DNA from: Promethearchaeota archaeon
Lineage (GTDB): Archaea > Asgardarchaeota > Lokiarchaeia > Sigyniarchaeales > SOKP01
Reading direction: 5' to 3'
Assembly (NCBI GenBank): GCA_020343655.1
Contig: CP070805.1
Location: 1,955,145 to 2,019,144, forward strand
DNA length: 64,000 nt
Shown here: piece by piece, positions 29,554-49,953 of the stretch
How the letters are laid out: every line of letters starts with the position of its first letter
Position numbering within the stretch: the first letter of the stretch is position 1
Notes under the pieces: generated by a model
Told to the model about the DNA's origin: nothing
What the model saw: the letters and a program-made list of their open reading frames with translations, nothing else
The model's database searches: none
Translations under genes and position numbers: made by a program

Positions 29554-30986
29554 AGTAATGTAATTAGAACGTCTAAAGCATCCAAGACTTTATTACCACT
29601 ATCTGTTATAAAATATAAAACATTTTTTCCTTCTTTTTTTCTAGATATCAAGCCTTTTGTTTCTAACTCTTTTAGATGTTGATAAATAGCGGCTAGACTT
29701 ATGCTCCCCATAGTTTCCTTGATTTTTGTCCCAGATATTCCTTGAATACTTGAAATTGAAATCTGAGATAATATTTTTAGTTTTGTGATAATTATAGAAC
29801 CCTTTCCTGTAGTTTTAGTTTGTGATGAGATTGCTTCTAAAACATAAGGTGCTTTTAATCCACTCCCAGTAATAAGACATACTATTTTATCTTTAGGTTC
29901 AAACATTTGTTTTTGATCTAATAATTGTACAGCTGATAAAGTTAAAGCCGAAGCGGGTTCTGCAAATATTCCTTCACTTCTTACTAATTCCTCAATTGAA
30001 CTTAATATTAATTTTTCAGGAATAGCGATGACCGTTCCTTCACTTTCTTTTATGCATTTTATTGCTAAATCTTTAAATAGAGGTTTTTTTACTAAAATTC
30101 CTAAAGCTATTGGTTTAACATTTTGTGTTGGTTTTATTTTATGCTCAGATTCCTTAAGAAATTCATTTACAATTGGGGATGAAGATTGAGATTGAACACC
30201 TATTAATTTTGGAACATCGTTAATAATATTAATTTCTTTAAGCTCATTAAAACCTTTCCAAAGACTAACTAATAATTCTCCACTCCCCATAGGGATTATA
30301 ACCCATTTAGGTTTCTCAGTTTGATTAATAATCTCATATGCTATTATTTTTTGAGCCTCTAGCGTTAATGGATTCAATTCCGAGGTACATTGATAATAAT
30401 TTTCAAAATCATTTTGATTTAAAATATAATCTATTGCATCATCAACAGTTTCTCCAACTATTTTTATTTCAGAATTATAGGCGATCATTTGAGCTTTTTT
30501 ACCTATATCAATTTCCTTTGGAATTATATTTAAACATTCAATTCCTTCAAGAGAACAATAAGCCGCAATTGAAGCACCTTGATTACCATTCGAGGCACAG
30601 ATTATTTTATCAAATTCCCAACTACGTGCATGAGAAATTAACAATGCTGCAGTGCGATCTTTAAAAGAATTTGTTGGATTTTGAGTTTCATCTTTAAAAT
30701 ATAGATTTTTTATTCCTAATTTTTCTCCAAATTGTTTTGAACTTCTACAGGGGGTTCCGCCCTCTCCTAATGAAATAATAAAATCCTCTTCTATCTCAGG
30801 AAATGCAAATTTGTAATCCCAAAATTTGTTATTAATTTTAATCTGAGAGAATTTCTGTTTGATTTTTTCTAAATCGAGTTCAAACCACAATAAACTTTCA
30901 CATTCAGGACACCTATATTGAATAGATGTAAATTCAAACTTTTTTTGGCATTCAATACAAGTTAGGATTAGTGGTTTTTTAATAAT
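29550..30986 (-). CDS. thrC: Threonine synthase-like PLP enzyme with N-terminal Zn ribbon and C-terminal winged helix; probable ATT start
   Basis: SLGEGGTP, NPTNSFKDR, ASNGN, PMGSG, EGIFAEPASA, TGSGLK. Frame is open upstream of the tracked TTG (30890) to ATT ATT (30986/30983), adding CIEC..CPEC, behind GAGGT. Confidence 0.8.
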   Translation of the reverse strand: MIKKPLILTCIECQKKFEFTSIQYRCPECESLLWFELDLEKIKQKFSQIKINNKFWDYKFAFPEIEEDFIISLGEGGTPCRSSKQFGEKLGIKNLYFKDETQNPTNSFKDRTAALLISHARSWEFDKIICASNGNQGASIAAYCSLEGIECLNIIPKEIDIGKKAQMIAYNSEIKIVGETVDDAIDYILNQNDFENYYQCTSELNPLTLEAQKIIAYEIINQTEKPKWVIIPMGSGELLVSLWKGFNELKEINIINDVPKLIGVQSQSSSPIVNEFLKESEHKIKPTQNVKPIALGILVKKPLFKDLAIKCIKESEGTVIAIPEKLILSSIEELVRSEGIFAEPASALTLSAVQLLDQKQMFEPKDKIVCLITGSGLKAPYVLEAISSQTKTTGKGSIIITKLKILSQISISSIQGISGTKIKETMGSISLAAIYQHLKELETKGLISRKKEGKNVLYFITDSGNKVLDALDVLITLL

Positions 30987-31187
30987 GAAATTACCTCATT
31001 GATAGACAATAATTTTGATTTAATTATTAATTGGTTTTTCTCATTATTAAGTTCTCTTAACAACCTTTTTCCTTATGAGACAGAAGATAACAGAATTGAT
31101 TATATAGAAATTTACGATCAATCGTAAATTTTATATTTATAATAAAACTAAATAAAACAATTTAAAATCTTGTCAAGGTGATAAAAA

Positions 31188-31949
31188 ATTCTTGAATGGG
31201 TAATATTATTCAGCATTTTAGGAAGTGTAGGAGCAATTACCGCTGCGGGGAGCTTTATGTTTTTAAATGAGAAATATCAAAAGAGTCTTATACCAATTTT
31301 AATTGCATTTGCTACAGGAGTACTTCTAACAGTAGCATTTTTAGGATTAATTCCAGAAGCTGTTGAAGGAGTAGAAGGAGAACCTCATATTATTATGCCT
31401 TTTATATTAGGAGGTATCCTTTTTTTCTTTATAATGGAAAAGATTGTGATCTGGAGAAATTGTCGTAATAAAGAATGTGAAGTGCATTCACACGCTTCTG
31501 GACCTATTATCCTTATTGGTGACTCATTACATAATCTAACAGATGGTATTGTGATCGCAGCTGCATTTTTAACCAACCCAACCAATCCTAATCTTGGAAT
31601 TGTAGCTGGATTCACTATTATATTTCATGAATTAGCGCACGAAACTGGGGATTTTGGTGTACTGTTACATTCAGGATATTCAAAAAAGAAAGCATTTGTT
31701 TATAATATCATCTCAAGTTCAACTACAATACCTGCTGCGATTATATCTTATTTTCTTTTAGATTCAATTGCGTTTATCGTGCCATTTTTATTAGCTATTG
31801 CCGCTTCAAGTTTCATTTACATAGCACTTTCAGATTTAACTCCAGATCTTCATCAACACACAGATATAAAATATATTGTTCGCCAATTAGCTGTAATAAT
31901 AATTGGTATTCTATTGATGGCACTATTACTGTCAATAGGAGGTCATTAA
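31188..31949 (+). CDS. ZIP family metal transporter; probable ATT start
   Basis: GDSLHNLTDG, HELAHETGDF, FIYIALSDL; first TM (ILEWVILFSILGSVGAITAAGSF) lies upstream of tracked ATG 31257, beginning at ATT after GGTGAT. Confidence 0.9.
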   Translation: MLEWVILFSILGSVGAITAAGSFMFLNEKYQKSLIPILIAFATGVLLTVAFLGLIPEAVEGVEGEPHIIMPFILGGILFFFIMEKIVIWRNCRNKECEVHSHASGPIILIGDSLHNLTDGIVIAAAFLTNPTNPNLGIVAGFTIIFHELAHETGDFGVLLHSGYSKKKAFVYNIISSSTTIPAAIISYFLLDSIAFIVPFLLAIAASSFIYIALSDLTPDLHQHTDIKYIVRQLAVIIIGILLMALLLSIGGH

Positions 31950-32000
31950 TACTGAAACTATATTTTTTTTTGAAAAAGTAATAATTGTGGTATTTAAGCC

Positions 32001-32414
32001 ATGTTAGATATTGATTATAAAGTTTTGAGAATACTACATCGGAATGATCCCCTGAAAGTAGGTAGTATTGCTAAAAAAATAGGTTTACCTCACTCTACAG
32101 TGGGAAGTTGTATTAAAAGATTAGAGAATAATGGTTATGTAGTATATCAACGCTATAATCCAGTTATTTTAACAGATAAAGGGACAGATTTAGCTATTGA
32201 ATTGAATCGTCATGCTCATCTACTTGAAATGTTACTAATCAATGAGCTCGAAATAGAAGCCAATGATGCTCATGCTGAGTGTGAAAAATTCAATTTACTT
32301 TTTTCATGTAATGTAATAAAGAAAATTTGTGAAAGATATAAACATCCAAAAGAATGTTCTTGCGGCGAAGAAATTTCAAATTCTTCAGATTGCTTTTGTG
32401 AAAAAGAAATTTAA
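32001..32414 (+). CDS. DtxR/MntR family metal-dependent regulator
   Basis: IAKKIGLPHSTV..IKRL, LTDKG, RHAHLLE; next to ZIP transporter; Cys-rich tail. Confidence 0.88.
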   Translation: MLDIDYKVLRILHRNDPLKVGSIAKKIGLPHSTVGSCIKRLENNGYVVYQRYNPVILTDKGTDLAIELNRHAHLLEMLLINELEIEANDAHAECEKFNLLFSCNVIKKICERYKHPKECSCGEEISNSSDCFCEKEI

Positions 32415-32511
32415 AAAATTAACTTGTAAGATCATCAGAAGGTTTCCCTTATTTATCGTTATGATCTAAAAAAAGAGTGGTTGAGATTTTGCTTTATAAG
32501 ATATCATTCCA

Positions 32512-32988
32512 TTATTTAATGATCTCGTCAGACGCAAACGCAATTAGAATCCGCCCATAGAAAAAATGATGACTTTTCAAATCCGATTTAGATGTGTAGA
32601 TAATTTGACATTCATAACTTAAAATACAATCTTTTATTGTGGGTACTTTTGTTCTTTTTCCGGGAATGGTTTCCAATCCCGCTTCTTTAAATTTATCAGT
32701 ATTTCTCCCTGAATAAGACCCTGCGATATATACTGCGTTATACATTTTATCTGAAGGTATGTTTACAGTAAATTCATTTACGCCCTCGGTAAGTAATTTA
32801 TAAGTATATCGACTATAATCTACTTGTGCTCTAATTACTGGAACATCCTCGAATTCTTGAATAGTCTTCCAATCCAATGCCATAACATTGGGTTTTCTAT
32901 TTTTATCCATCGATACTAATAATCCTGTATTTCTCTTAAAAGACTCAATAAATTCATATGGTCCGATTTCTTTTCTATTATAAGACAT
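32512..32988 (-). CDS. Flavin reductase-like (flavoredoxin) protein
   Basis: PNVMA, EFTVNIP, GSYSGRNTDKF, HHFFYGRI. Confidence 0.88.
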   Translation of the reverse strand: MSYNRKEIGPYEFIESFKRNTGLLVSMDKNRKPNVMALDWKTIQEFEDVPVIRAQVDYSRYTYKLLTEGVNEFTVNIPSDKMYNAVYIAGSYSGRNTDKFKEAGLETIPGKRTKVPTIKDCILSYECQIIYTSKSDLKSHHFFYGRILIAFASDEIIK

Positions 32989-33041
32989 TTTCTTTTATTT
33001 TTTACTTAGTTTTGATAAATCCTTTTTGAACAGAATAAAGA

Positions 33042-33881
33042 TTAAGGAAGTCCAGCCCCGGGAATATCGACCTTTACGTATTCTATCCGTCCTTTTACTC
33101 TCTCAGCGGTTGATGTTGCTATAAAAAGTATATCACGGTTAGGACCACCAAGCATACAAGCATAAGAATCTGTTTCAATTTTTACTACATCAGTAATTTT
33201 ACCACCTTCGAGAACACGTACAACCCTATGGCGTCCTGGAGCAGAAGACCAAATTGCACCTTCAGCATCCAAACATATTCCATCAGGAGCAGTTGATCTA
33301 GGTTTAGCCCATAATCTACGTTCTGTAAGAGAACCATCTTCCATGATATTAAATGCCGTAAGACGTTGAGCAAAAGTTTCTGCAACAATAAGAGTCTTAC
33401 CATCTGGAGTAATAACCATTCCATTCGGGAAAGCCATGTTATCAGCAACAATTCTAGCATCTCCTTCGGGGGTTACAAGAATAATCTCAGCTGGAGTAAA
33501 TTTTGGATTAGGACTAAAAAAGTTAAATCCCATATTTCCTACATACACTCTCCCTTTATCGTCAACAACCATATCGTTGCAGTTTAAAGTGGCAAGAACA
33601 CTCAAGTCTGCATGTTTTGTTAATCCTTCGGGATCAAGACGAAGTATCCTACTATTTTCCATTGATACTATTAATAATGTACCATCAGGGAGCCAACCTA
33701 AACCAGAAGTTCGGTTCGCTATCTCCAATATCGTTTCTGTGTTTCCATTCAGATCCACGGTCACTACTTTATGAGCATCCATTTCGGAGAACCATAGTTT
33801 ACCATTATGCCAACGTGGGCTTTCTGGCCATAATAAACCTTCAAGAAGGATTTCTGTTGTCAAAATTACCATTAATTTCAC
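33042..33881 (-). CDS. SMP-30/gluconolactonase family protein
   Basis: PESPRWH, CNDMVVD, FPNGM, PDGICLDAEG; likely start ATG 33872. Confidence 0.92.
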   Translation of the reverse strand: MKLMVILTTEILLEGLLWPESPRWHNGKLWFSEMDAHKVVTVDLNGNTETILEIANRTSGLGWLPDGTLLIVSMENSRILRLDPEGLTKHADLSVLATLNCNDMVVDDKGRVYVGNMGFNFFSPNPKFTPAEIILVTPEGDARIVADNMAFPNGMVITPDGKTLIVAETFAQRLTAFNIMEDGSLTERRLWAKPRSTAPDGICLDAEGAIWSSAPGRHRVVRVLEGGKITDVVKIETDSYACMLGGPNRDILFIATSTAERVKGRIEYVKVDIPGAGLP

Positions 33882-34043
33882 ATATTTTAATTTTCTTAAT
33901 GTTAAAATTTTATTTAAAGTTTAAATTTTTTATCGTGAATTAATTTATCTATAGCGAGAAGACAAGTTTCTCGGTTTTTATGAGAAATATAATAGAATAA
34001 GGAAAAAAAATAATATAAGTATTTATTTTGATTATAACTAAAC

Positions 34044-35081
34044 TTATACTATATATGAACTAGCTTCTTTCAACCTTTTTTCAGCAGACTTAATGATATC
34101 ATTAATGATGTCCTGAACACTCTCAATCGAGTTAATAATACCTATACTTTGTCCCAACAGGACTGCTCCATCAATAATATTACCGTCATAAATCATTTCA
34201 TAATGCTTTTGATCTTCCATAGCCATCTCAGGAGTTATCTGTGCTTCTAATGCCATTTTTTCTTCTTTAGTGGAAACGACTCCATGGTGTAAAGAATAAT
34301 TATTTTTCCACAGGCGAATTGGACCCAAAACTCCAGTGACGTATATAGTGTCGCTTGCTTTTGCTGGAGGTACTACATTTTTATAATTTTCATTAAATTC
34401 ACTTTCTTTTGAGGCAATAAATCTAGATCCCATTGCAATAGCTCCTGCTCCCACTGCTAAAGCTGAAGCTAAACCCTCACCGCTCGCAAAGCCTCCACAT
34501 GCTATGATTGGTAGATCTGGATATTTTTGTTTAACCTGTTGAAGAAGAACTAATGTACTGATCTTTTCATAAGATTGATGTCCTCCACCTTCATACCCAG
34601 TTAATACAACACCATCAACTCCCGCATCAACACACTTTGTAGCAAGCCATAATGCTGGAGCAACATGAAAATGTTTAATATTAGAACCACTTTCTATCAA
34701 TCTTTGGTATGGTTTCATTTTTGGCAATGTTTTAGCTGACCCTGCACTTGTAATTGCATAAATACATTGCTCTTTTAATTTCGAATTATCCATAATAAAT
34801 CTTGAAATTCCACGACAGAGTCCTGGAGCATCAAGTTGTAATCTGGATGTTCTTACATTAAATCCAAAAGGTTTGTCTGTGTGCTCAATTACATACTCCA
34901 TATCCTTCTTCATTTCTTCTAAACTACTTTTCCCAAATAGATTAGTATGACTTAAGACACCCAAACCACCTGCTTCAGAAATCGCAACAGCTAACTCCTT
35001 AGTGTAAAATGGGCCCATAGGAGCAGCAACAATCGGATGTTTAATTCCGAGCATTTTAGTAATGTTTGTTTCTAAAACCAA
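34044..35081 (-). CDS. Nitronate monooxygenase / FabK-like FMN oxidoreductase
   Basis: LGIKHPIVAAPM, SEAGGLG, GYEGGGH, GAGAIAMGSRF, GQSIG. Confidence 0.9.
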   Translation of the reverse strand: MVLETNITKMLGIKHPIVAAPMGPFYTKELAVAISEAGGLGVLSHTNLFGKSSLEEMKKDMEYVIEHTDKPFGFNVRTSRLQLDAPGLCRGISRFIMDNSKLKEQCIYAITSAGSAKTLPKMKPYQRLIESGSNIKHFHVAPALWLATKCVDAGVDGVVLTGYEGGGHQSYEKISTLVLLQQVKQKYPDLPIIACGGFASGEGLASALAVGAGAIAMGSRFIASKESEFNENYKNVVPPAKASDTIYVTGVLGPIRLWKNNYSLHHGVVSTKEEKMALEAQITPEMAMEDQKHYEMIYDGNIIDGAVLLGQSIGIINSIESVQDIINDIIKSAEKRLKEASSYIV

Positions 35082-35400
35082 ATTCTTATACCCTTTTTTA
35101 TTCTTTTTATTCTTTTTAAAGATATTATATTGTTGATAATGAAAAATAAGAACATTATATAAATTTTTTATAGATTTAAAAACGATTAAATAGATTATAT
35201 TCTCTTTTAAGAAATATTGATTTAATCAATTAAATAGTTCTGAATAATATATAAGAAGTTATTAAAAGTTGGTTTCTAAATATATTTAAATATAACTTTC
35301 TTTTTTGTTTTTATAAGCTAATTAATTCTTAATTAATGGTCTAAAGCCATATAATTTTCACCTCAAGTGTTTTACAAATATTTTTTAGGCGATAAATAAG

Positions 35401-36414
35401 TTGGATACTATTAATTTAAAATTAGTTGTCCTTGGAGAAGGAGAGGTTGGGAAAACTTCTATTATAAATGCCTTTCTTCGAAAAGAAATCCCTATGCAAT
35501 ATTTACCAACAATTGGTAGTATCACAACTAAAAAAGAATATGTGATAAAAGAAAATCAAAATGAAGTTAGGATTATACTTTCAATTTGGGATGCAGGGGG
35601 GCAAAGGTCTTTTAATCCTCTAAATCCTGCAATTTATGCTGATTTAGACATAGTTCTTTTAGTATTTGATCTATCCAGACCAAAAGAAACACTGAAAAAC
35701 CTTAAAAGTGAATTTTTAGAAAATGCGAATCGATATTCTGAAGAAATTCTTTCAATTCTAGTTGGGAACAAATTAGATTTACTTTCTGTTAATGATGAAG
35801 TGAAAGAAACCATCAAAAGTTTTTTAACTAAAAATGACAATTTAATTTTCATTTCGGCAAAAACAAGTGAAAATATCACTGAATGTATTGAATTGTTGAT
35901 TTATACATTTTTAAGAAAGGCAGAGATTTTGTATCCTGATGTTGTTCTTACTAATATATCTCAACTTTTTCTAAAATTAATCAATAAAAATGAAAAACAA
36001 TTAAAGAGCCGATTGATAAATTTAAAAAATATAGATAAGGTTTTCCAAAAAGTTGAACCAAAGCTTAAAGTTAAAAAAGCAACTGATATAGAGAAAAAGG
36101 ATAAAGATCTAGTTTATTACGATTTTCTTAAGCAAGAACTAAATAATAATGATATTCAAAAAAATGAAGTTATGGATAGATTTTTAATTAATCTTACTGA
36201 ACTTAACAAAACAATTCAACACATAAAAAAATCCCAATCTACCTCGGTTGAAGAATCATTTATAGACTTAAAAGATTTTTTAATGAATGCTAAAAAAGAG
36301 TTTGAAATGAATTTAGAATTAATGACAAAATTAAATAGAGAGGAATTTGAATTAGTAAAAATTATAACCAAATTTAGAGAAGAACACTCAAAACTAGAGA
36401 TAGGAGCGTTCTAA
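35401..36414 (+). CDS. Rab/Ras-like small GTPase with C-terminal helical extension
   Basis: G1 GEGEVGKTS, G2 PTIG, G3 WDAGGQ, G4 NKLD, G5 SAK; about 160-aa helical tail; no C-terminal Cys. Confidence 0.9.
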   Translation: MDTINLKLVVLGEGEVGKTSIINAFLRKEIPMQYLPTIGSITTKKEYVIKENQNEVRIILSIWDAGGQRSFNPLNPAIYADLDIVLLVFDLSRPKETLKNLKSEFLENANRYSEEILSILVGNKLDLLSVNDEVKETIKSFLTKNDNLIFISAKTSENITECIELLIYTFLRKAEILYPDVVLTNISQLFLKLINKNEKQLKSRLINLKNIDKVFQKVEPKLKVKKATDIEKKDKDLVYYDFLKQELNNNDIQKNEVMDRFLINLTELNKTIQHIKKSQSTSVEESFIDLKDFLMNAKKEFEMNLELMTKLNREEFELVKIITKFREEHSKLEIGAF

Positions 36415-36455
36415 TAAATAATTAACGAATTAAGAAACTATTTAAATTAAAAAGG

Positions 36456-37469
36456 GTGAAAAAGATACCTGAAGAAATTTCTTTAAAAGATTTCCAGAAA
36501 TTAAAAGAACAAGTTAATAAGCTTAATCAGAAATTAAATGACCAAATTAAAACATTTGAACAAAAAGAAAGAGATAACATCAAAAATCTCGAAAAAAAAT
36601 TGATAGAACAAATTAATAACTTAGATCAAACTCTGAATGATAAAATAAATAATTTAGAAAAGAATTCAAGCGAACAGGTGAAAAAAATTGATCAAACACT
36701 AAATGAACAAGTTAAAAATCTAGATAAGAACCTAAATGATAATATTAGTAAAGTAGAAAAAAAATCAACTGAAGAGATTAATAAGTTAGACCAAAAAGTG
36801 AAGACCCAATTCACACGGCTGGATCAGAAAATTGATGAACAGGGGAAGACAACTAATAAGAAAATGGGAGATTTAGCAAATATGTTTGAAGGAGAATTAA
36901 ACGAAAAATTTACTACTCTTGATAAAAAATTGGAGGAAGACTTTAAAGCACTTAATTTAGAAATTGAAAATATATTTAAAACAATCAATCAAAAATTGAA
37001 TGATTATGTTAATGATCTCAAAAATGAGATAAAATCTCTCACTGATAACATAAAAACTAATAATGAAGATTTTAAAACAAGATTGAAGAATTTTAAGGAA
37101 GAATTTGATATTAAAGAAGATGTTATTAGAGATATGTTTAAAAAATTCGAAGAGGAAAATATAGAATTTAAAAATAATCTTAAACCAGTGTTAGAAACCC
37201 TCAAGAGTCAGCAAGATTTAGTCAAAATAACCCTTGATGTACAAAAAAAACAAATATTTGAAAGTGCTAAAAAATGGATTGATGATGAAATAAAATTAGC
37301 ATGTAAAAATAAAGAAAAAGAAATTCTCATGAATTTGTGGATTGATGAATTAAAAGACATTATTAGCAATTTAGATAAATTAAAAGAAATAAATCCTAAA
37401 GATTTAAAGCTTCATATTAATGAAATATCGAGTACTATTGATTCATTTAAACAAAAATTCATAAAATAA
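36456..37469 (+). CDS. Coiled-coil protein with 11-residue repeats
   Basis: LEKKLIEQINN LDQTLNDKINN LEKNSSEQVKK IDQTLNEQVKN LDKNLNDNISK VEKKSTEEINK LDQKVKTQFTR. Confidence 0.8.
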   Translation: MKKIPEEISLKDFQKLKEQVNKLNQKLNDQIKTFEQKERDNIKNLEKKLIEQINNLDQTLNDKINNLEKNSSEQVKKIDQTLNEQVKNLDKNLNDNISKVEKKSTEEINKLDQKVKTQFTRLDQKIDEQGKTTNKKMGDLANMFEGELNEKFTTLDKKLEEDFKALNLEIENIFKTINQKLNDYVNDLKNEIKSLTDNIKTNNEDFKTRLKNFKEEFDIKEDVIRDMFKKFEEENIEFKNNLKPVLETLKSQQDLVKITLDVQKKQIFESAKKWIDDEIKLACKNKEKEILMNLWIDELKDIISNLDKLKEINPKDLKLHINEISSTIDSFKQKFIK

Positions 37470-38547: not shown

Positions 38548-38558
38548 ATTTAGATTGG

Positions 38559-40467: not shown

Positions 40468-42357
40468 TTGACTGAAAAAGATCAAGAACAAATTCTCCCA
40501 ACTCGTAATGTTGGATTGTTAGCTGGAATTTTATATGGAATTGGTTGTGGGATTGGAGGGTCAATATTTATTCTATTAGGTACAGCAATTGAAGAAGCTA
40601 ATTCCGGAGTTTTAATCAGTTTAATACTTGGAGGGATTTTGATTATCTTGATTGCACTTAATTATAGTGAACTTTCTACTAGCTTACCTATTTCAGGGGG
40701 TGCTTATAATTTTAGTAAAGAAGCTTTAGGAGGATTTTTAGCATTTATTATTGGATTCTTCCTATGGATTGCGAATATTGCATCATTTTCTTTTTCTGCT
40801 CAGGCATTTGCTGTAGTTATTGATGCTTTTTTTCCTTTCTCATTATTGCCCCCAATATTTCTTACAATTGCCATTATATCAATAATATTTACCGCAATTA
40901 TTGCATTTAGACCTCAAAGATTAGCAATGAGGGCTTTAATTATTTCAACAATCATTTTATTAATAATTTTTGCTATTTTTATTATTGCAGGGCTGTGGAT
41001 AGCTCCAGTTATCAATAGTCCAAGTTATAATCCGCAATTTCTTTTATCTGAAACAAACTTTTTTAGTGTGATTTCAATGTTTTCTTTAATGTTTATTTTT
41101 TTTACAAGCATTACTTCAAATTTAGCATATTTAAATGCTGATTTAAAAAATCCTTCAAAAAATATTTTAAAGGTCAATATATTCGCCATATTTATAACTT
41201 TATTTATTTACTTGTCTATAACGGTAGTAGTTTTAATCAATATTGGAAATACTTCAACTGGACTAAGCGAAACGCCCATCCTATTGGCGGTAGTATTGAG
41301 TAATATTCTTGGGTCACCTGGATTAATACTTATGGGAATTGCAGCAGCAATCTCGACACTAATAGCAATGAATGCTGCCTTAGGTTCTGCCGTAAGTATT
41401 ATGTATGCATTAGCACGAGATAATTATGTTTCAAAAAAATTGTTAAAAACTAGTAAAAAGACTAAAGTACCAACAATGATATTGATCCTAACAACATCAA
41501 TAGCTATTATTTTTACATTTTTATCAATATTATTTGCGAATATTGGATTCTCAGCAAATATAACTACATTCATTTATTTTATAGGATTAGCATTGATTAA
41601 TTATGCTGCAGTTAACTTAAGACGTAAAAGAAAGGAATTAGATCGCCCTTTTAAAGCTCCCTTTTTTCCATATCTTCCAATTGTAGTTATGTCTTTCTGT
41701 TTTATACTTGCATTATTTTTGGAGTGGACAGCAATAGTTTTAGGGGTATTTATTTTCTTTATAGGGATTACATACTATTTAGTAACAATCGCAGACCGCC
41801 ATTCGATCATTCTAACGATTGCGGGATTAAAATTTTTTGCTATAATTTTAGTTGGAATTTTTATCTGGATTATAAATAATTTGAGCGTTTTAAGTTCTCC
41901 TATACTAGGATTTACTTCAATTTTCTATGATATTTTACTACGGATTCTGATATTCATAAGTATTTTTACAATCGGTACTATTTTTTTTGATATTGTACCA
42001 TTAAAAGAATTGGTTTATTTTTTTATAAAGAGAGTAAACAAAAAAGAAGTAGCTATTGATATCGGAATTGGTCAGATTATCGAACTGAAAAAAAGTAAGG
42101 CAAAAATCATTTATTATATTAATATAATTATAGGTATTATTCAAATTTTCTCTTCAATATTTATCTTTACTCTAATCTCCTTGTTTGCACTCGATATTAT
42201 TTCAATAGAAAACATTATTTTTGGTAGTACAATTATTCCACAAGCTACAGGGGAATATTTATTATTTGGATTTTTAATTTTTCTTGGCACAATTTTATTA
42301 TTTAGTGGCCCGTTTAGTTTGTATTTAAATAAGGAAACAAAATCATTAGGAATTTAA
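40468..42357 (+). CDS. APC family amino acid permease with extra C-terminal TM segments
   Basis: GIGGSIF, YSELSTSLPISGGAY, LKNPSKN, YALARD, RPFKAP. Confidence 0.9.
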   Translation: MTEKDQEQILPTRNVGLLAGILYGIGCGIGGSIFILLGTAIEEANSGVLISLILGGILIILIALNYSELSTSLPISGGAYNFSKEALGGFLAFIIGFFLWIANIASFSFSAQAFAVVIDAFFPFSLLPPIFLTIAIISIIFTAIIAFRPQRLAMRALIISTIILLIIFAIFIIAGLWIAPVINSPSYNPQFLLSETNFFSVISMFSLMFIFFTSITSNLAYLNADLKNPSKNILKVNIFAIFITLFIYLSITVVVLINIGNTSTGLSETPILLAVVLSNILGSPGLILMGIAAAISTLIAMNAALGSAVSIMYALARDNYVSKKLLKTSKKTKVPTMILILTTSIAIIFTFLSILFANIGFSANITTFIYFIGLALINYAAVNLRRKRKELDRPFKAPFFPYLPIVVMSFCFILALFLEWTAIVLGVFIFFIGITYYLVTIADRHSIILTIAGLKFFAIILVGIFIWIINNLSVLSSPILGFTSIFYDILLRILIFISIFTIGTIFFDIVPLKELVYFFIKRVNKKEVAIDIGIGQIIELKKSKAKIIYYINIIIGIIQIFSSIFIFTLISLFALDIISIENIIFGSTIIPQATGEYLLFGFLIFLGTILLFSGPFSLYLNKETKSLGI

Positions 42358-42383
42358 AAAATATTATTTTTTTTCTATATAGT

Positions 42384-43118
42384 ATGCTGTTTCCAAAAAT
42401 GAATCTGCATATTCATTCGAATTATTCTGATGGAAGACAAACAATCACACAAATTGTAAAAAGTGCAATTAAACTCGAATTAGATTATATTGCGATAACT
42501 GATCATTTTACTAACTCATGGAAAGCGTGGGTTTCTACTTTAAATAATTATGAAACCATTTCAGCATATTTAGAAGAAATTTCAGATTGCCAAAAATATT
42601 TAACAAAATCTAATAAACAATTATCACTTCTAAAAGGAATTGAAGTTGATTTAGGAAGTTCTGAGCGATTTATTAGAAATTATATACAAATAGACAAATT
42701 TGACTTGATTTTATTTGAGTATCTTGAAAATTATGAATCTATTGCTTTTATTAGAAATATAATATATTATTGGAAAAACAAATTAACTGATTTTAACAAA
42801 TTTCCAGTTTTAGGCTTAGCGCATTTTGATCCTTCTTACTTCTTAACGGGAAATCTTGAGATTCTAATGAGATTTCTTAAAAAAAATAATATCTATTTCG
42901 AATTTAACTCTAGTTATCCATTATTTTATTCTCGTAAAAATGAATTCTTTTTTAAAAAATTAAAGGAATACCAGATCCCTGTTGCAATAGGCTGTGATTC
43001 TCATAGACTTTCAAATTTGAATGATATTGAAGAACCTATGGAAATGATAAAATATTATAATCTTGAGATAAATTTTGAGATTCTACTAAATACTTTAAAA
43101 TTCTTAGAGTTAGGGTAA
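42384..43118 (+). CDS. PHP domain phosphoesterase
   Basis: HIHSNYSDG, ITDH, GIE, AH, GCDSH. Confidence 0.9.
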   Translation: MLFPKMNLHIHSNYSDGRQTITQIVKSAIKLELDYIAITDHFTNSWKAWVSTLNNYETISAYLEEISDCQKYLTKSNKQLSLLKGIEVDLGSSERFIRNYIQIDKFDLILFEYLENYESIAFIRNIIYYWKNKLTDFNKFPVLGLAHFDPSYFLTGNLEILMRFLKKNNIYFEFNSSYPLFYSRKNEFFFKKLKEYQIPVAIGCDSHRLSNLNDIEEPMEMIKYYNLEINFEILLNTLKFLELG

Positions 43119-43210
43119 TTTATACGATCTTTAAGAATTATTTTTGCTAGAATAGCTAAGGAAAAGTTTGAAAGCCTTTTCAAAAAATTTTAATTTTTAA
43201 AAAAATTTGA

Positions 43211-44020
43211 ATGAAAGTAATTAACAAAAATCTTTTAAACCGTACTTTTTTTATGTCTTTTATGGATTTAGAAGAAAAAATTAATCTTGCTGCCAAATGG
43301 ATAGCTGAATCAGAACGGTTAGTAGTCTTCACTGGTGCAGGTTGCTCAACAGGTAGTGGGCTACCTGATTATAGGGGTCCAAATGGTGTGTGGACCAGAC
43401 GCGATAAGGGACTACCACCCCCTAAACCAAAAGTTGCATGGGATCAAGTAAAACCAAATCCTAACCATTTTGCAATTGTGGAGTTAATGGAGATGGGAAA
43501 GTTGAATTATATCATTTCCCAAAATGTGGATGGTTTGCACGCTAAATCGGGAATACCTTTTGATATGCTAGCTGAACTTCATGGGAATCAGTTTTTCATG
43601 AAATGTTTATCATGTAATAAAAAAATGTTATTCGAAGAAGTTGGTTGGGATAAAGAAAAATGGGGACCAGGATATCGGACACACCCTACTCGAGATGGTC
43701 AGCCAACATGTCCACATTGTGAAGGGCGCTTGATTTCGAGTATTGTAAATTTCGGTGATCCTCTTCCTTATGATGAGCTTCAAGAATCAATCATACGATC
43801 TGAGAATGCTGATGTTTTTTTTGTAGTTGGCTCATCTTTAGTAGTTACACCTGCTGCTAATATGCCAGGAATCGCAAAACAAAATGGTGCTAAATTGATT
43901 CTTATTAATAAGGGTGATACACCCTATGATCATGTAACCGATATAAGATTCGATAATTTGATTGAAGATGTACTCCCACCAATAATGGAAAAATTAAGAG
44001 AATTGTTAAAAAGTAGTTAA
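43211..44020 (+). CDS. Sir2-family NAD-dependent deacylase (class IV / SIRT6-like motifs)
   Basis: GAGCSTGSGLPDYRGPNGVWT, SQNVDGLH, LAELHGN, CxxC..CxxC, GSSLVV, INKGDT; true start probably ATG 43262. Confidence 0.93.
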   Translation: MKVINKNLLNRTFFMSFMDLEEKINLAAKWIAESERLVVFTGAGCSTGSGLPDYRGPNGVWTRRDKGLPPPKPKVAWDQVKPNPNHFAIVELMEMGKLNYIISQNVDGLHAKSGIPFDMLAELHGNQFFMKCLSCNKKMLFEEVGWDKEKWGPGYRTHPTRDGQPTCPHCEGRLISSIVNFGDPLPYDELQESIIRSENADVFFVVGSSLVVTPAANMPGIAKQNGAKLILINKGDTPYDHVTDIRFDNLIEDVLPPIMEKLRELLKSS

Positions 44021-44066
44021 TCTACTATGATTTCTTGCTTTAATAATTAACGAGATTAATATTGGA

Positions 44067-45731
44067 TTATTTTAATTTTCCATAAATATCTTTGTTATTA
44101 TTTAATTCTTTTAATATCTTTTTAGCTTCCTTATTTGAAAGTGAAAGAGAAATATCGCTATTACGACTTAAAGAACCTGTAAAAATCTGTTGATTATCTG
44201 CGAAGATAACAATATTTTGACTAGAAAATTCAGGATTTGCTCTGATAATGATTTTTTGTTTTTTTATCTCAATATCCAAATTGATCCTCTCATCTTTCTT
44301 CTTTCTACTTGATTGAAATCCTTTTGTTCTTGCTTGATATTTAGAACTGATAGGATTCACAACAACATCATTACCAAAGTTATAAATCTCAAATTCAAGC
44401 CTATCATTCTTAAAATCCCTTACCTCCACCACTGGTCGCGCTAAATCCTTATCTCTAAATCCATGGGGCACTTTAACAGTCATTTTTAATATCAAAACTG
44501 TTGAAATATCTCCACCTTCAATGAAGATAATTGTATCTATAATTGATGGAAGCATTCCAAGCTCTATTCGGCCTATAAATCTTTGAATTGCGTCTATTGC
44601 TGAAGATGAATGAACTACACCAACCATCCCAACTCCAGATAAACGAAAATCTGAATAAATTTGGAAATCTTTTGTAGTCCTCACTTCATCAAAAATTGTA
44701 AAATCTGGTCTTACAAGCAAAAGTATATCTGCTGAATTCTCAAGATTGCCTTCCAATTTAGTGTATTGAGTTATTTCGGGTTCAACTTGTAAATCTCTTA
44801 CACTTTCAAGTGTTTTAATTACTTTATCTTGCTTCAAGTAATAATTTGCTAGTGCTGCTGAAAAGGTAGATTTTCCCGCTCCTGGTGATCCACATACTAA
44901 AATTCCCTCCGCTTTTTGTAACCTCTCTTTAAGTCTTGGATCAATGGAATAATCTGATAAGGTTAAACTTACAAGAGGGCGAGTGACGGTAATTTCTACA
45001 TCATTAGAGAAAGGGGGTCTAGCAATAACGATCCTAAATTCCCGCAATTGAGCAACCACAGCACCTTCTTTTTCTATTTCTATAAATGAGTGCTCATCTT
45101 CTCGTACATTTTCTATTATCTCTAATGCGATATCTTCAATCATTTGAGAATTCAATGATTCATCTTGGATTTTTTCGAGCCTCCAATTTCCAGGAGATCC
45201 TTTTTTTGCATATGGTGATAAATTCCGCTTTAGGTGAACGCTCATTGTTGAGTCATCAAAAAACTCTAATAGTTTTAAAGAAAGGGGTTCTTTTTCTTTT
45301 GAGATTTTTTTCTCCCAGGCATACATCACATCTAATCCTTCAAAAATGGCTACATCTCCTTGTATACGATCTGCGGTTATAAGCACAGCGTTATTTTGTT
45401 TCGCAGATTCTCTTATTAAGGCATCAAGTTCCCCTCCAGGTGCCATTTTTATTTCTTCTCTTGTTGGTCTTTTCCCTATAACATGAAGAGTGATCACACT
45501 TTCATTATGGAGCTGTCTCAGCTGCTTTAAAACATTTAATCCGAAGAAACCAATTTCCTTATGAATATTCGTTCTATATTCAACTTCTGCGATAACTATG
45601 TTTGAGATAAAAATTTCTGGTTTTTCTCCTAATTCTCCATCTTCAATCAAGTTAAGGATCTGACCGTTAAAAATAATAGACGTATCACACGCAAATTTAT
45701 CTGACATTATTCTCTTCGTCTCTCCTTCCAT
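44067..45731 (-). CDS. PINA-type ATPase (PIN domain plus P-loop ATPase)
   Basis: DTS PIN start, GSPGAGKST, RPDFTIFDEVR, SGVGMVGVVH; likely start ATG 45707. Confidence 0.9.
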   Translation of the reverse strand: MEGETKRIMSDKFACDTSIIFNGQILNLIEDGELGEKPEIFISNIVIAEVEYRTNIHKEIGFFGLNVLKQLRQLHNESVITLHVIGKRPTREEIKMAPGGELDALIRESAKQNNAVLITADRIQGDVAIFEGLDVMYAWEKKISKEKEPLSLKLLEFFDDSTMSVHLKRNLSPYAKKGSPGNWRLEKIQDESLNSQMIEDIALEIIENVREDEHSFIEIEKEGAVVAQLREFRIVIARPPFSNDVEITVTRPLVSLTLSDYSIDPRLKERLQKAEGILVCGSPGAGKSTFSAALANYYLKQDKVIKTLESVRDLQVEPEITQYTKLEGNLENSADILLLVRPDFTIFDEVRTTKDFQIYSDFRLSGVGMVGVVHSSSAIDAIQRFIGRIELGMLPSIIDTIIFIEGGDISTVLILKMTVKVPHGFRDKDLARPVVEVRDFKNDRLEFEIYNFGNDVVVNPISSKYQARTKGFQSSRKKKDERINLDIEIKKQKIIIRANPEFSSQNIVIFADNQQIFTGSLSRNSDISLSLSNKEAKKILKELNNNKDIYGKLK

Positions 45732-46326
45732 TATATTCTTCTTTATTTAAAATCTGAAACTTTTTAACGCTGTAGTAAATGGGTTTACTCAATCTATCAA
45801 CTGTTGCTACAATTAAATCCTTTCGAGAACTCATAGCAACTCTGGACATTTTATCCAAATCTCTTAATTCAATAGGGTTCCCCTCAAATACTGGAAATAT
45901 TAAAAACCTTGCTGAATCTTTTTCAAAATCAGCCCCCCTCTTATATACGCGAAAATCTAAACCATTACCATACCCAGTGCGAACGATATACCCTCTTTTT
46001 CTTAAATCCATGTAAACTATGTATTTATGAAACAGCTTTTCATCAAATTGGGTAAAATATGTTAATAAACTCTCAAAATCGTATAATTTTTTATTCTTAT
46101 CGTTATCTTCCCATAATAATATTCTATTCCTTTCACATAACAATAAAACTTCAATGGAGTCAATGATTAGGACTTCTTGTCCTTTACTATTTTTCTCAAC
46201 TGAACCTATATATGAAGTATTATAAAATTCTTCAATTCCCTTTATATCAGTAATAATAACTTTATCATTTTCAATTATTCCTTCTAATTGAACTTTCTCA
46301 GGTTTCTCAGTTAAATCTTCCGTCAT
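45697..46326 (-). CDS. endA: tRNA-intron endonuclease subunit
   Basis: IEVLLL, YIVYMDLRKRGYIVRTGYGNGLDFRVY, RVAMSSRKDLIVA. Confidence 0.85.
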   Translation of the reverse strand: MTEDLTEKPEKVQLEGIIENDKVIITDIKGIEEFYNTSYIGSVEKNSKGQEVLIIDSIEVLLLCERNRILLWEDNDKNKKLYDFESLLTYFTQFDEKLFHKYIVYMDLRKRGYIVRTGYGNGLDFRVYKRGADFEKDSARFLIFPVFEGNPIELRDLDKMSRVAMSSRKDLIVATVDRLSKPIYYSVKKFQILNKEEYNGRRDEENNVR

Positions 46327-46380
46327 ATAATATTAAATATGAATTAATTATAATTAATGAATTTATCCATCTACTTTTCT

Positions 46381-46500
46381 CTAATGAACGTTTTTTAATT
46401 TTCCATTTAATTCCCCTTTAAAATATCCTATATCTAAATGATTTATAATCTCATGGAAATTTCCTTTAGAAATGGGCTCTTCCTCTTCTTTTTTATCCAA
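46381..46500 (-). pseudogene. Possible truncated PAS-domain gene remnant (39 codons)
   Basis: TTG 46500 to TAG 46381: MDKKEEEEPISKGNFHEIINHLDIGYFKGELNGKLKNVH, resembling the start of a PAS domain. Confidence 0.3.
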
Positions 46501-46578
46501 ATTTTATTGCCTTTTTTATTATTGGAGGTTAATTTTAGTGAGAATTGAATTTCGATTTTCCTAATTTAGTTAATTATT

Positions 46579-47211
46579 ATGCATTTTTTTTTTTGTCAAA
46601 TTTTACATTGGTGTTTTAAAATATTAATGATTTATGTAATTATGGAAGAGATGCTTAACACACTATTATTTAAGTTAAAGGGGGCAATAAAAGTTGTTTT
46701 TATGGGTATTGGAGAAGAAAAATTAAGTGATGATGGATTTGGACCTTATATAATAAGCGAACTCCTAAAATATTCGAATGAGAAATACCTATTTATAAAT
46801 GCCGGCATTGATCCTATGAGTAGAATTGATGATGTTATTACTTTTCAAGCATCACATCTAATATTTTTAGATACCTGTACTTTAAACAAACCTCCTGGCA
46901 CTGTTGCTATAATTGAACGGGAAAGTATTAAAGAATACGTGCCAATCTCATCACATACAATCCCAATTCATATAGTTGTTGATTTATTAGTTGAAAAATT
47001 ACCAAATTTAAAGGTTTTTATGATTGGGATTGTGCCAGAAAGCCTTGAAGGATTCTCTGAGCTAGTTTTATATAAAAAGGATAAACTTTCACTCGAAGAG
47101 CGAAGTGAGAATAAAGATCTTCCATTTTTTGAATTTAATCTCACAGATACTATTAAAAATGTAGCAGATGAGATTATTGAGATTATTGAAAAAATAATAC
47201 AGAACCTATGA
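46579..47211 (+). CDS. Hydrogenase maturation protease (HycI-like)
   Basis: GIGEEKLSDDGFG, FLD, SSHTIP, IGIVP; true start probably ATG 46642. Confidence 0.85.
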   Translation: MHFFFCQILHWCFKILMIYVIMEEMLNTLLFKLKGAIKVVFMGIGEEKLSDDGFGPYIISELLKYSNEKYLFINAGIDPMSRIDDVITFQASHLIFLDTCTLNKPPGTVAIIERESIKEYVPISSHTIPIHIVVDLLVEKLPNLKVFMIGIVPESLEGFSELVLYKKDKLSLEERSENKDLPFFEFNLTDTIKNVADEIIEIIEKIIQNL

Positions 47212-47215
47212 AAAT

Positions 47216-47416
47216 CTATTCTTTCTTCTGCGAAATTTTAGAAATATAATCTGTAATTATATCAATTGCTTTAGATATATTTTTCTGTTCATCAGAATTT
47301 AAATCTTCTTTAAGATTTTCTAAAAACGCCGTAACTCTATCTGCTTCCCTTAGCTTTCTAATATAATCAGAGCCATTTTTATTAAGTGATCCTCCCCATG
47401 CCATATTAAACACCAC
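47216..47416 (-). CDS. Small hypothetical protein
   Basis: 66-aa ORF with protein-like helical composition; likely start ATG 47404 (MAWGG). Confidence 0.55.
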   Translation of the reverse strand: MVFNMAWGGSLNKNGSDYIRKLREADRVTAFLENLKEDLNSDEQKNISKAIDIITDYISKISQKKE

Positions 47417-47566
47417 ATTTCAATAGAAAAGCATATAATAGTTAAGAATAAACAATAATTATTTAATTGATTCTTTTGAATAAGTAAGTTTAAATCTTAG
47501 CTTTTAATTTGAAACTAATAATAAAAATTTGTGGAAAAGTGGAATATTATTATTTTTTAGCAAAAA

Positions 47567-47584
47567 TGAATGAAGATTCATTCA
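47567..47584. promoter_or_regulatory. 18-bp palindrome TGAATGAAGATTCATTCA
   Basis: 8-2-8 inverted repeat in the divergent intergenic region upstream of the second FabK-like gene. Confidence 0.65.
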
Positions 47585-47830
47585 GTAATGATCTATAACG
47601 ATACTTCACAAATCCTAAAGGAAAAACCTTGAATTAGTTGTTTAATAAAAAAGAAACGAATTTTTAATAACAGCTTTGATAAAATAATACTTTTAATATT
47701 GTGTTTTCAAGTAAAAGTTTTATAAATAAACCTTTGATAAAAATAACTAATCATTTGATCTTATAATTAAAGGTTTGATCCATCAAATCTTTTGATTTAA
47801 ATTTATCAGATGAGAAAAAAGTGATTTAGA

Positions 47831-48883
47831 ATGGTAATCGAAACGAATATTACAAAAATGTTAGGGATTAAGCATCCGATACTAAGTGCTCCTATGGGAC
47901 CATTTTATACTACTAAATTAACAGTTGCGGTATCAGAAGCGGGTGGTTTAGGTGTTTTAAGTCATGTTACCTTACATGGAACTATAACTATAGATGAAAT
48001 GAAAAAAAGTATGGAATATGTTGTTGAATATACTGATAAGCCTTTCGGTTTTAACATTAGAACAGCTAGATTACAACCAGACGCTATTAAACTTTGTAGG
48101 CAACTTCCGAGGTTTATTATGGAAAATCCAAAAATAAGAGAACAATGTGTCTATTTACTTACTAGCGCAGGGTCTCCAAGGATGATATATAACAAACATT
48201 TTGAAAAACTAAGAGAAAGTGGTTCAAATATAAAGCATTTCCATGTAGCTCCGACAGTGTATTTGGCTGAAAAGTTGGTTAATAGTGGTATTGATGGGCT
48301 TGTTGTTACCGGAACCGAAGGTGGAGGTCATCAATCTTATGATAATGTAAGTACTCTAGTCTTATTACAACAGATAAGAAAAAAATTACCGGATCTTCCC
48401 ATAATTGCTTCTGGAGGTTATGCCACGGGTGAAGGGCTAGCTTCTGCATTATCTATGGGTGCAGGAGCTATCGCAATGGGATCTAGGTTTATATCTTCCA
48501 AAGAATGTGAATTTCACGAGAATTATAAAAAAATAGTAGTTAATTCAGATGCTTCAGATACTGAGCTTAAAACAGGGATTTTTGGACCTGCAAGAGTATG
48601 GAAGAATAAAATGGCCGAAAAACACGATCTTGTAGCAAGTAAAGAAGAAAAACAAGCTGGAGAGATTTCGATGGCAAAAGTTGAAAAAGAATTAGCTGAA
48701 TTAGAAAGAACTTATGAAGGAAACATTGAGGAAGGAATAGCCTATTTAGGACAAAGTGTTGGATTAATAAATAGTATAGAAAGTGTCTCAGAAATAATAA
48801 ATACTATAGTTGTTGATGCTGAACAATGCTTAAAAGCAGCCTATAATACAATTAAGAAAATTTCTATAGAACAAATAATTTAA
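47831..48883 (+). CDS. Nitronate monooxygenase / FabK-like FMN oxidoreductase (paralog of 34044..35081)
   Basis: Same motifs; shares long identical blocks such as ETNITKMLGIKHPI, APMGPFYT, ESGSNIKHFHVAP. Confidence 0.9.
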   Translation: MVIETNITKMLGIKHPILSAPMGPFYTTKLTVAVSEAGGLGVLSHVTLHGTITIDEMKKSMEYVVEYTDKPFGFNIRTARLQPDAIKLCRQLPRFIMENPKIREQCVYLLTSAGSPRMIYNKHFEKLRESGSNIKHFHVAPTVYLAEKLVNSGIDGLVVTGTEGGGHQSYDNVSTLVLLQQIRKKLPDLPIIASGGYATGEGLASALSMGAGAIAMGSRFISSKECEFHENYKKIVVNSDASDTELKTGIFGPARVWKNKMAEKHDLVASKEEKQAGEISMAKVEKELAELERTYEGNIEEGIAYLGQSVGLINSIESVSEIINTIVVDAEQCLKAAYNTIKKISIEQII

Positions 48884-49179
48884 AATTCATTTTTATTGTA
48901 AATATCTTTTTTTAACTTATAATATTGTTAATGTTAATATTGTTAAATTCGATAATAGAACAATCTCAATTTTAGTATTAAACAGATAATAACAATATAA
49001 ATATTCAAATTATACAGATATTTCTATTGAAAATATTATTTGGAATTAAATAAATTTCAAAATAAAATTTCAAAAATAACTTATAAAATAAGTTAGTTGA
49101 TAAGACGTATCTGCTATTTAGATTAAATAAGAATATATTATAATAATTAAGAAAGACTTGCAACGTTAAAAGGGCTAAA

Positions 49180-49605
49180 ATGATCCAAGAATTAATGATA
49201 ATTAATCAAGCAGGAATAGCTTTATTTTATCATGATTTTTTGAATAACAATAGATTAGATGATGAACAATCCCTAGCTAGCTATTTTGATATAATTTGCC
49301 GGTTTACAAAACGAGAATTTAAAGAAAGCCTGAAAATGTTAACGTTAGATAGTTTTATCTTTTTCTTTTTTAACCACAGCTCTGGTTTTCATTTAGTTCT
49401 TAAATGCGATAATAAAGATATTGATAAAAGACAGCTAGAATCCTTTTCTGAAACCATAATTGATGACTTCTTACTAAGATATAAAGGTATACTAAAAGAT
49501 TTTAATGGAGAAATTTCTCAATTTAAATCTTATTCCACTTATATTATACAATTTCTTGATACTAAATTCAAGAATTTCAAGAAGACTCGTTATATAGAAC
49601 TCTAA
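49180..49605 (+). CDS. Longin-like domain protein
   Basis: MIQELMIINQAGIALFYHDF start, LASYFDIICRF helix, FNGEISQF end. Confidence 0.65.
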   Translation: MIQELMIINQAGIALFYHDFLNNNRLDDEQSLASYFDIICRFTKREFKESLKMLTLDSFIFFFFNHSSGFHLVLKCDNKDIDKRQLESFSETIIDDFLLRYKGILKDFNGEISQFKSYSTYIIQFLDTKFKNFKKTRYIEL

Positions 49606-49698
49606 TAAAAATATTAGCAAAAAAAAAATAAGAGAAAAATTAGTCGGCTTTTTCTCCTTACAACCCCGTGATAAATACGTCTCTACTTAATGGATTAC

Positions 49699-49953
49699 TT
49701 AAACTCCGCCTGCTTGTGTAGCCATTACTGTTATTACGTCCTTTTTTGGATGAATTCCGATCTTCGAGAATTTTAGTTGGTCAGGTAAAACTTTTCCTTT
49801 GAATATAAATTGTATTGCTAATATTGGATTTAATTTATACTCACGCTGTACAGTTTTTTTAATTTCTGCTATTGAGTTGTTTGGATCTAATTCGATAAGT
49901 TTGATGGCTTGATCTGGGGGGACTCCGGTTAACCTAAACCTATATTGGGTAAT
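49699..49953 (-). CDS. Ubiquitin-like (beta-grasp) protein ending GG-V; probable ATT start
   Basis: 84 aa: (M)TQYRFRLTGVPPDQAIKLIELDPNNSIAEIKKTVQREYKLNPILAIQFIFKGKVLPDQLKFSKIGIHPKKDVITVMATQAGGV; GGGTGTGAT 5 nt upstream; in-frame stops just before. Absent from ORF track. Confidence 0.88.
   Translation of the reverse strand: MTQYRFRLTGVPPDQAIKLIELDPNNSIAEIKKTVQREYKLNPILAIQFIFKGKVLPDQLKFSKIGIHPKKDVITVMATQAGGV

Follow-up and report, generated by a model that had tools for sequence, protein, structure and literature searches.

Can protein synthesis in an Asgard archaeon begin at ATT? The question is raised by a 64,000-nucleotide stretch of the genome of a Promethearchaeota archaeon of the Lokiarchaeia (contig CP070805.1, bases 1955145-2019144), called the window below, in which three genes appear to open with ATT behind a ribosome-binding site. 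These genes are the threonine synthase gene thrC, a gene for a ZIP/ZupT-type metal transporter (ZIP) and a ubiquitin-like gene (Ubl). An earlier note, written from the letters of this stretch, had proposed ATT as the start of all three and, on that basis, relaxed start-codon selection in the lineage. We read the codon homologous to each ATT in orthologs from the same genus (24 species-level genomes) and from other genera of the order (16 genomes). Judged from these sequences, the Asgard genus most likely uses ATT as the start of thrC, ZIP and Ubl, and ATT starts look like a habit of the whole genus. It is highly probable that the three genes are translated from an ATT standing in the place of the ATG of sister species.

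The genome is a metagenome-assembled genome (MAG) of 2.27 Mb with 29.4% G+C. The assembly consists of about 138 pieces linked by runs of 100 N, and its completeness is 82%. It carries the ubiquitin-like gene, a gene for the initiation factor aIF1 and intron-bearing tRNAs. Positions given below are those of the window unless a genome position is named.

The 3' end of the 16S rRNA reads GGATCACCTCCA, from which we take the Shine-Dalgarno (SD) consensus to be GGAGGTGATC. Relative to the first ATGs of the genome, GTGAT is most frequent at -10/-9, and a spacing of 5 nucleotides is therefore the local norm. The same spacing is found at the two canonical sites that the earlier note had used for comparison, GGTGAT-TATTA-GTG at 9030 and GTGAT-TTAGA-ATG at 47831, both of which exist. 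In all three window genes the ATT lies 5-6 nucleotides 3' of an SD motif, spaced as in the ATG genes of the genome. The upstream stops are one to four codons away and the next canonical codons lie 23 (ZIP), 31 (thrC) and 76 (Ubl) codons downstream. The stop that lies in frame shortly before each ATT had been counted in favour of the ATT starts. It is present in each case, but it is mostly a side effect of the SD and not independent evidence, because a start 5 nucleotides after GTGAT necessarily shares its frame with the TGA inside GGTGAT (window 31177-31184 and 49959-49964, and likewise at the other ATT genes).

Ubl (49699..49953, minus strand) has 84 codons and ends in ...AGGV. Its leader consists of the SD motif GGGTGTGAT (49967-49959, minus strand), the spacer AAACA and the ATT start codon at 49953-49951, with TGA TAA upstream, so that the arrangement GTGAT-AAACA-ATT is as first described. 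The frame offers a single canonical start, an ATG that precedes the stop by nine codons. Translated from the ATT, the protein would begin with Met-Thr-Gln-Tyr-Arg. The protein scores above the cut-off of the ubiquitin family PF00240 (36.9 bits against 25.4) and has the C-terminal Gly-Gly, and the ubiquitin fold requires a strand right after the ATT. Among 20 loci of the genus the start codon is ATT in 16, ATG in three (G018, G024 and G004) and ATA in one, while outside the genus it is ATG in 15 of 15 loci. Second copies of the gene have ATT in G007 and ATG in G008, where the copy is divergent. Across the genus the amino-acid identity is 95-99% with many synonymous changes, and the SD motif is kept in the ATT-bearing orthologs. 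We computed SD energies as the duplex with the anti-SD (in kcal/mol), and all means exclude the rows from outside the genus, which are mis-registered by indels. For the ATT-bearing Ubl orthologs the duplex energies range from -8.4 to -12.2, with a mean of -9.2, and the three ATG orthologs within the genus have -3.8, -3.8 and -0.9.

The thrC gene (29550..30983, minus strand; PALP 217 bits) encodes a protein with an N-terminal zinc ribbon and a C-terminal winged-helix domain. The SD-like motif GAGGTAAT (30990..30997, minus strand) has one mismatch to GAGGTGAT and is followed by TTC and two ATT codons, at 30986 and 30983, with a TGA upstream at 30998-30996. The earlier note had left both ATT codons as candidates. 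The orthologs confirm the site and single out the second ATT (30983-30981): the first one (30986-30984) varies to ATC, ACT and CCT, and four loci have a TAA one codon ahead of it, leaving 30983 and not 30986 as the start. At this second position the 17 countable loci of the genus have ATT in 13, ATG in three (G007, G017 and G011; loci L072, L074 and L075) and ATC in one; two more loci are truncated at the 5' end by a contig edge and were not counted. AGAGGTnAT is kept in the ATT-bearing orthologs, and the mean SD duplex energy is -7.5 for the 13 ATT orthologs against -3.4 for the three ATG orthologs. The first canonical start is the TTG at 30890, downstream of the CxxC...CxxC zinc ribbon. The protein passes the TIGR00260 equivalog (173.2, cut-off 167.1) and scores 337.7 with the longer model NF004170, under its cut-off of 421. 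Position 2 of NF004170 pairs with residue 11 of the stop-to-stop frame, and therefore homologs begin ahead of the CxxC. Read-through of the upstream TGA was considered and rejected: only eight more open codons, with no ATG, precede a TAA, and in four orthologs a TAA precedes the pair of ATH codons (H is A, C or T). The winged-helix domain (29550-29800, residues ~405-478) is HxlR/PadR-like and is also covered by NF004170.

The ZIP gene (31188..31949, plus strand) has the SD motif AAGGTGAT at 31175..31182, 5 nucleotides before the ATT, with a run length of 7 and a duplex energy of -9.9. As the earlier note had it, GGTGAT (31177-31182) and the spacer AAAAA lead to the ATT at 31188-31190; an in-frame TGA TAA lies directly upstream. 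A canonical start first occurs 23 codons in, with the ATG at 31257. The protein is well above the PF02535 cut-off (115.4 bits against 35.1). With the ZupT equivalog it scores 52.7, under the cut-off of 252, and position 14 of that profile pairs with residue 14. In 19 orthologs of the genus the start codon is ATT in 11, ATG in six, ATC in one and TTG in one, a count that omits two more distant paralogs and one outgroup locus. An indel was also considered: reading a GGG as GG would bring the ATG at 31196, otherwise out of frame, into the frame of the gene. This idea was rejected, since orthologs such as L041 have no ATG there and keep the ATT in frame; the ATG is also 13 nucleotides from the SD. 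Directly 3' of the gene lies a gene for a DtxR-family metal-dependent repressor (32001-32414), which suggests that the two form a metal-homeostasis pair.

The species that carry ATG are not the same for the three genes; those of ZIP are six others. Since the ATG-bearing species differ from gene to gene, the switches between ATT and ATG are independent events and not the peculiarity of one clade. In Ubl and thrC the ATT orthologs have a stronger SD than the ATG orthologs, which is a descriptive result, as related species are not independent. The comparison across species also bears on whether errors of sequencing or assembly produced the ATT codons, or whether thrC, ZIP and Ubl are decaying pseudogenes. 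The MAG is fragmented and incomplete as described above, and the essential aEF-2 gene elsewhere in it does contain an odd in-frame TAA. Against this, 11 to 22 independent assemblies at species level, depending on the gene, share the ATT, and the proteins are conserved (Ubl at the identity given above) while flanking synonymous sites vary. The recurrence across species and the conserved proteins exclude sequencing error and pseudogene decay, and we regard such an explanation as hardly credible.

Besides the three window genes, the habit is seen in genes elsewhere in the genome. One of them is the gene of aIF1 itself (genome 880917-881237; PF01253, 62.7 bits). It has no canonical start upstream of the CPxC...CxC knuckle, its first methionine codon is near the C-terminus, and its residue 5 aligns with residue 3 of the Methanocaldococcus jannaschii protein in PDB 4MO0. 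The start codon is ATT in 22 of 22 readable loci of the genus, and one more locus is masked by N. In the seven loci outside the genus it is TTG in three, GTG in one and ATA in three, the latter read as ATA behind GGTGA/GTGAGA. ATG is found in none of the 29 loci of the order (loci L099-L128). Another example is a ThiF-family E1-like gene (PF00899; G000:C1 2020939-2021679, L129), 1.8 kb past the window end. Its start codon in 21 loci of the genus is ATT in 15, ATC in five and ATA in one, and outside the genus it is ATG in seven of seven; the first canonical codon is 62 codons in. As both Ubl and this nearby gene are led by ATT, the two parts of a putative ubiquitin-like system would share the weak start. 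For the ribosomal protein uL15, 16 of 25 loci of the genus have only ATT, ATC or ATA at the N-terminus (three of these 16 also with an in-frame GTG inside the SD) and the other nine have ATG. The uL15 gene keeps a downstream ATG 11-12 codons in, except for two loci without it.

These genes help to judge whether translation begins instead at the next canonical codon downstream, the conserved upstream stretch being leader RNA or lost. Such codons are at hand in thrC (TTG 30890), ZIP (ATG 31257) and uL15 (the ATG just mentioned). Ubl has no usable canonical codon, and the first ones of the E1-like gene and the first methionine codon of aIF1 lie far too deep to serve. Moreover, the stretch between the ATT and the canonical start evolves like coding sequence in ZIP and thrC. 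In ZIP the synonymous fraction is 0.54 in frame versus 0.14 in frame +1 (five orthologs passing a gap-free filter), and in thrC it is 0.39 versus 0.21 (14 orthologs). The claim that the extensions restore expected parts also holds, as the family profiles of thrC and ZIP reach into them and cover the zinc ribbon and the first membrane helix. Finally, sister species place an ATG exactly at the position of the ATT. A start at the downstream codon is thus very unlikely for these genes. Translation from the ATT remains the preferred reading.

How the codon would be read depends on the initiator tRNA. The one found (genome 903345-903455) has the anticodon CAT, A1:T72, three G:C pairs in the anticodon stem and an intron. 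ARAGORN detected 24 tRNAs, this one being the single initiator-type tRNA among them, and no initiator with another anticodon in this incomplete MAG. Initiation at ATT might instead depend on a special decoder, namely an additional initiator tRNA whose anticodon differs, or begin the protein with isoleucine; with 24 tRNA genes from an incomplete genome, a further tRNA could have been missed. Yet only the one initiator-type tRNA is present, and ATT, ATC, ATA and ATG interchange at one position, with ACG at another gene. Because of this interchange, one tRNA that tolerates single mismatches fits better than a dedicated reader of AUU, and we give a special decoder little credence.

In the mechanism that we favour, the duplex of SD and anti-SD would fix the 30S subunit with AUU in the P site. 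The ordinary initiator Met-tRNA (CAU) would pair with AUU via the first two positions, the third being mismatched, and methionine would be inserted as the first residue. Initiation would be weaker than at AUG, by analogy with Staphylococcus aureus, where AUU and AUA reporters are described as giving about 10% of the AUG yield (bioRxiv 10.1101/2025.06.19.660503), and a strong SD may compensate for the weak codon. A lowered stringency of the initiation machinery of the genus, possibly via the dosage of aIF1, may have enabled the habit.

The earlier note had suggested a genome-wide comparison of start codons as a check, and this comparison bears it out: ATG interchanges with ATT across species, and further SD-led ATT, ATA and ATC starts are predicted in the genome. 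We screened the genome in three ways. The first screen took open reading frames (ORFs) of at least 120 codons with a codon at most five codons from the upstream stop, at SD spacing behind an SD run of at least 5, separated from the first canonical start by at least 12 codons and opening a coding-like stretch. It gave 30 matches, 19 of them ATT, ATA or ATC (ATT 11, ATA 7, ATC 1), the rest being AAG 4, CTG 1, ACG 1 and five others. A control that moved the SD window upstream again gave 30 matches, of which only four were of this kind (ATT 1, ATA 2, ATC 1), and one that moved it onto the codon gave two among 18 (ATT 1, ATC 1). The excess of SD-positioned ATT, ATA and ATC openers is more than chance.

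The second screen lowered the minimum length to 50 codons and covered 2084 coding-like ORFs, among which it found 172 SD-led canonical starts (ATG 115, TTG 47, GTG 10) and at least 26 SD-led ATT, ATA or ATC starts (ATT 16, ATA 8, ATC 2), and its list includes all three window genes and an ACG-started THUMP gene. These counts are lower bounds, because only codons with a strong SD and with eight or more codons before the first canonical start were accepted. In the third screen, for which extended ORFs were picked without an SD criterion, 17 of 37 have ATT, ATA or ATC in the first ten codons with an SD energy of -6.5 or lower; for comparison, an energy of -7 is reached by only 10.6% of first-ATG genes.

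AAG was rejected as a start codon, since two of the AAG matches follow an in-frame TGA in SelD/PurM-like paralogs (x-C-K-L). These paralogs are adjacent (G000:C1 1127251 and 1128520). As the genome has a tRNA-Sec (tca, 739262-739354), their TGA codons are probably selenocysteine codons and not stops with starts behind them.

If ATT starts are a habit of the genus, they should be rarer elsewhere, and for this comparison the second screen was retrained per sequence on 400-kb samples (L194-L253 for all four genomes). Two slices of the present genome gave 5 ATT/ATA/ATC versus 34 SD-led canonical starts and 7 versus 28, and G006 of the same genus gave 4 versus 37. In another family with 31% G+C, G032 (L194-L213) gave 0 versus 44 and G038 (L214-L233) 0 versus 35. 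Pooled, this is 16 versus 99 in the genus (1.2 Mb, two genomes) against 0 versus 79 in the other family (0.8 Mb, two genomes), with a Fisher p of 0.0002, a value to be read with the partial dependence among genes of one genome and among related genomes in mind. Among the sampled genomes, starts at ATT, ATA or ATC cluster in this genus. Nor are these codons alone in displacing ATG, because SD-led TTG is also commoner in the genus: the ratio of SD-led TTG to ATG is 29:66 in G006 and G000 versus 4:73 in G032 and G038 together. Near-cognate use elsewhere may not be zero. G032 and G038 have single CTG or ACG candidates behind strong SDs of the AGGAGG type, right after a stop and opening coding-like stretches; they may represent a different kind of near-cognate start beyond this genus. 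Of the relaxed start selection proposed for the lineage, the pattern of usage thus stands, and a biochemical property of the machinery does not follow from it.

A simpler account keeps the same mechanics and gives them no regulatory meaning: A+T pressure would let ATG decay to ATT or ATA wherever a strong SD permits it. The G+C content of 29%, the lack of a shared function among the affected genes and the flipping of start codons in both directions among species all agree with it. Two observations speak against it. There is no ATT/ATA/ATC start in 800 kb of two outgroup genomes with a near-equal G+C content (31%), and ATT is fixed in aIF1 (22 of 22) and found in 16 of 20 Ubl loci while neighbouring synonymous sites vary. 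Neutral decay plausibly holds for many of the genes, without explaining the fixed ATT of aIF1 or the absence in the outgroup. As an account of the whole pattern we consider it a real possibility, if a somewhat improbable one.

The start codon of aIF1 invites a different model. In vitro, aIF1 of Sulfolobus solfataricus is described as blocking the binding of AUU model mRNA (PMC4705826, PMC6237735), and bacterial IF3 as controlling its own AUU-started gene infC (PMC4705826). An aIF1 gene that itself starts with ATT would by analogy suggest feedback. The genus would then run initiation at a lowered stringency: the AUU-started aIF1 would fix its own level, AUU, AUA and AUC behind a strong SD would be usable, and dozens of genes would form an aIF1-dependent regulon. 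If this were true, the ubiquitin-like protein and its E1, a ribosomal protein, transporters and enzymes would rise and fall with aIF1, as an archaeal counterpart of bacterial infC control and of eIF1-tuned near-cognate initiation in eukaryotes. We hold this model as a tentative and rather unlikely one. A link between the start codon of aIF1 and the genome-wide habit was not supported by G030, whose aIF1 gene apparently starts with ATA, yet whose 400-kb sample gave few candidates; this sample therefore lends the feedback model no support.

Several points weigh against ATT initiation, both in the three genes and as a habit of the genus. The SD is a weak, minority signal genome-wide, as a run of at least 5 precedes 7.1% of first ATGs versus 2.1% of internal positions. 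The SD energies of ZIP are hardly apart, with -6.2 for ATT orthologs and -5.4 for ATG orthologs. The second screen also passed CTG 2, AAG 2 and ACG 1, plus 21 other codons at one or two each, and all counts are approximate because the gene model is a simple home-made hexamer score. The outgroup sample consists of three genomes at 400 kb each, and the last of these, G030, belongs to a third genus and yielded two candidates, a weak ATT and an ACG. Furthermore, thrC, ZIP and uL15 keep a downstream canonical codon, from which a shorter second isoform may conceivably be made. Fidelity substitutions in aIF1, which the earlier note had proposed to look for, are not evident. The protein has five genus-fixed differences to seven outgroup sequences, of which four are conservative and one is K for Y/F beside CASGGT, none of them interpretable, and the loop RKWGR is unchanged. 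With an ordinary initiator tRNA besides, neither component explains a relaxed stringency.

Within the window, the screens found no further near-cognate case, and an Rfam scan of the window gave no match. A leucine-rich repeat (LRR) gene (51694..53226, plus strand) had tentatively been assigned a start at ATA 51772. This start is unsupported, because an ATG at 51694 directly follows the upstream stop; the ATA has no SD, and the ATG opens a hydrophobic N-terminal stretch. The gene therefore has an ordinary ATG start and lies outside the phenomenon. Elsewhere in the genome, the aEF-2 gene (G000:C1 ~1381.9-1384.1 kb, L274) carries a 30-nucleotide in-frame insertion with a TAA (...DSDLD*DLLFLLKDEEQERGITI), which three congeners (G006, G023 and G002) lack in their orthologs. 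An artefact of assembly, a small insertion and a broken copy are all conceivable explanations.

ATT starts of this kind would matter for annotation as well as for evolution. A gene finder restricted to ATG, GTG and TTG would overlook Ubl, aIF1 and the E1-like gene and cut off the zinc ribbon, the membrane helix and other N-termini. For these Asgard archaea, proteomes and inventories of 'eukaryotic signature proteins' would for this reason be systematically incomplete. The genus would also be a natural system for asking how proofreading of the aIF1/eIF1 type is tuned, and the habit bears on the evolution of start-codon stringency in the archaeal relatives of eukaryotes.

A full-text search, with most subscription journals outside its coverage, found no publication on routine ATT/ATA/ATC initiation in an archaeal lineage. 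A review of archaeal translation names only AUG, GUG and UUG as starts (PMC7531240). For Asgard archaea a single published case came up, a 'rare ATT start codon' proposed for the AtubA tubulin gene in a MAG of the Kariarchaeaceae (PMC13394414). The argument made there is of the same type as here: the deposited tubulin lacks its first strand, and an upstream ATT at a plausible distance from a ribosome-binding site restores it. It differs in being a single gene of another Asgard family, termed rare and proposed without a comparative or genome-wide test.

A bacterial likeness is found in S. aureus, where starts with an extended SD are described for infC (AUA), citZ (AUA), cvfC1 (AUU) and ccpN (AUA) (bioRxiv 10.1101/2025.06.19.660503). 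In both systems AUU and AUA are conserved among species and stand at a fixed spacing behind a strong SD. In the bacterium these are four sites mapped by profiling, whereas in the Asgard genus they are dozens predicted from sequence. Eukaryotic eIF1 is described as limiting its own synthesis via a start in a poor context (PMC4705826, PMC6237735). The likeness lies in the archaeal and eukaryotic fidelity factor that would police such codons. The difference is that AUG in a weak context or model mRNAs in vitro are concerned there, while here the codon itself is weak.

The infC system shares with the archaeon a near-cognate AUU behind an SD and a factor that rejects such codons although its own gene is begun by one, here aIF1. 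IF3 and aIF1 are unrelated, and Escherichia coli has only a couple of such genes versus at least 26 in the archaeon. Besides infC, pcnB is another bacterial AUU start, and NCBI translation table 11 includes ATT, ATC and ATA among the possible starts. An ATT start is also reported for ebpA of Enterococcus faecalis (PMC4447247), and non-canonical starts are reported for Deinococcus deserti (PMC2830850). Like the genes described here, table 11 and these bacterial cases accept ATT, ATC and ATA as occasional prokaryotic starts; unlike here, the codons are treated as exceptions. What the Asgard genus presents is a familiar mechanism at an unusual scale, in an archaeal genus near the eukaryotic stem and with the proofreading factor's own gene included.

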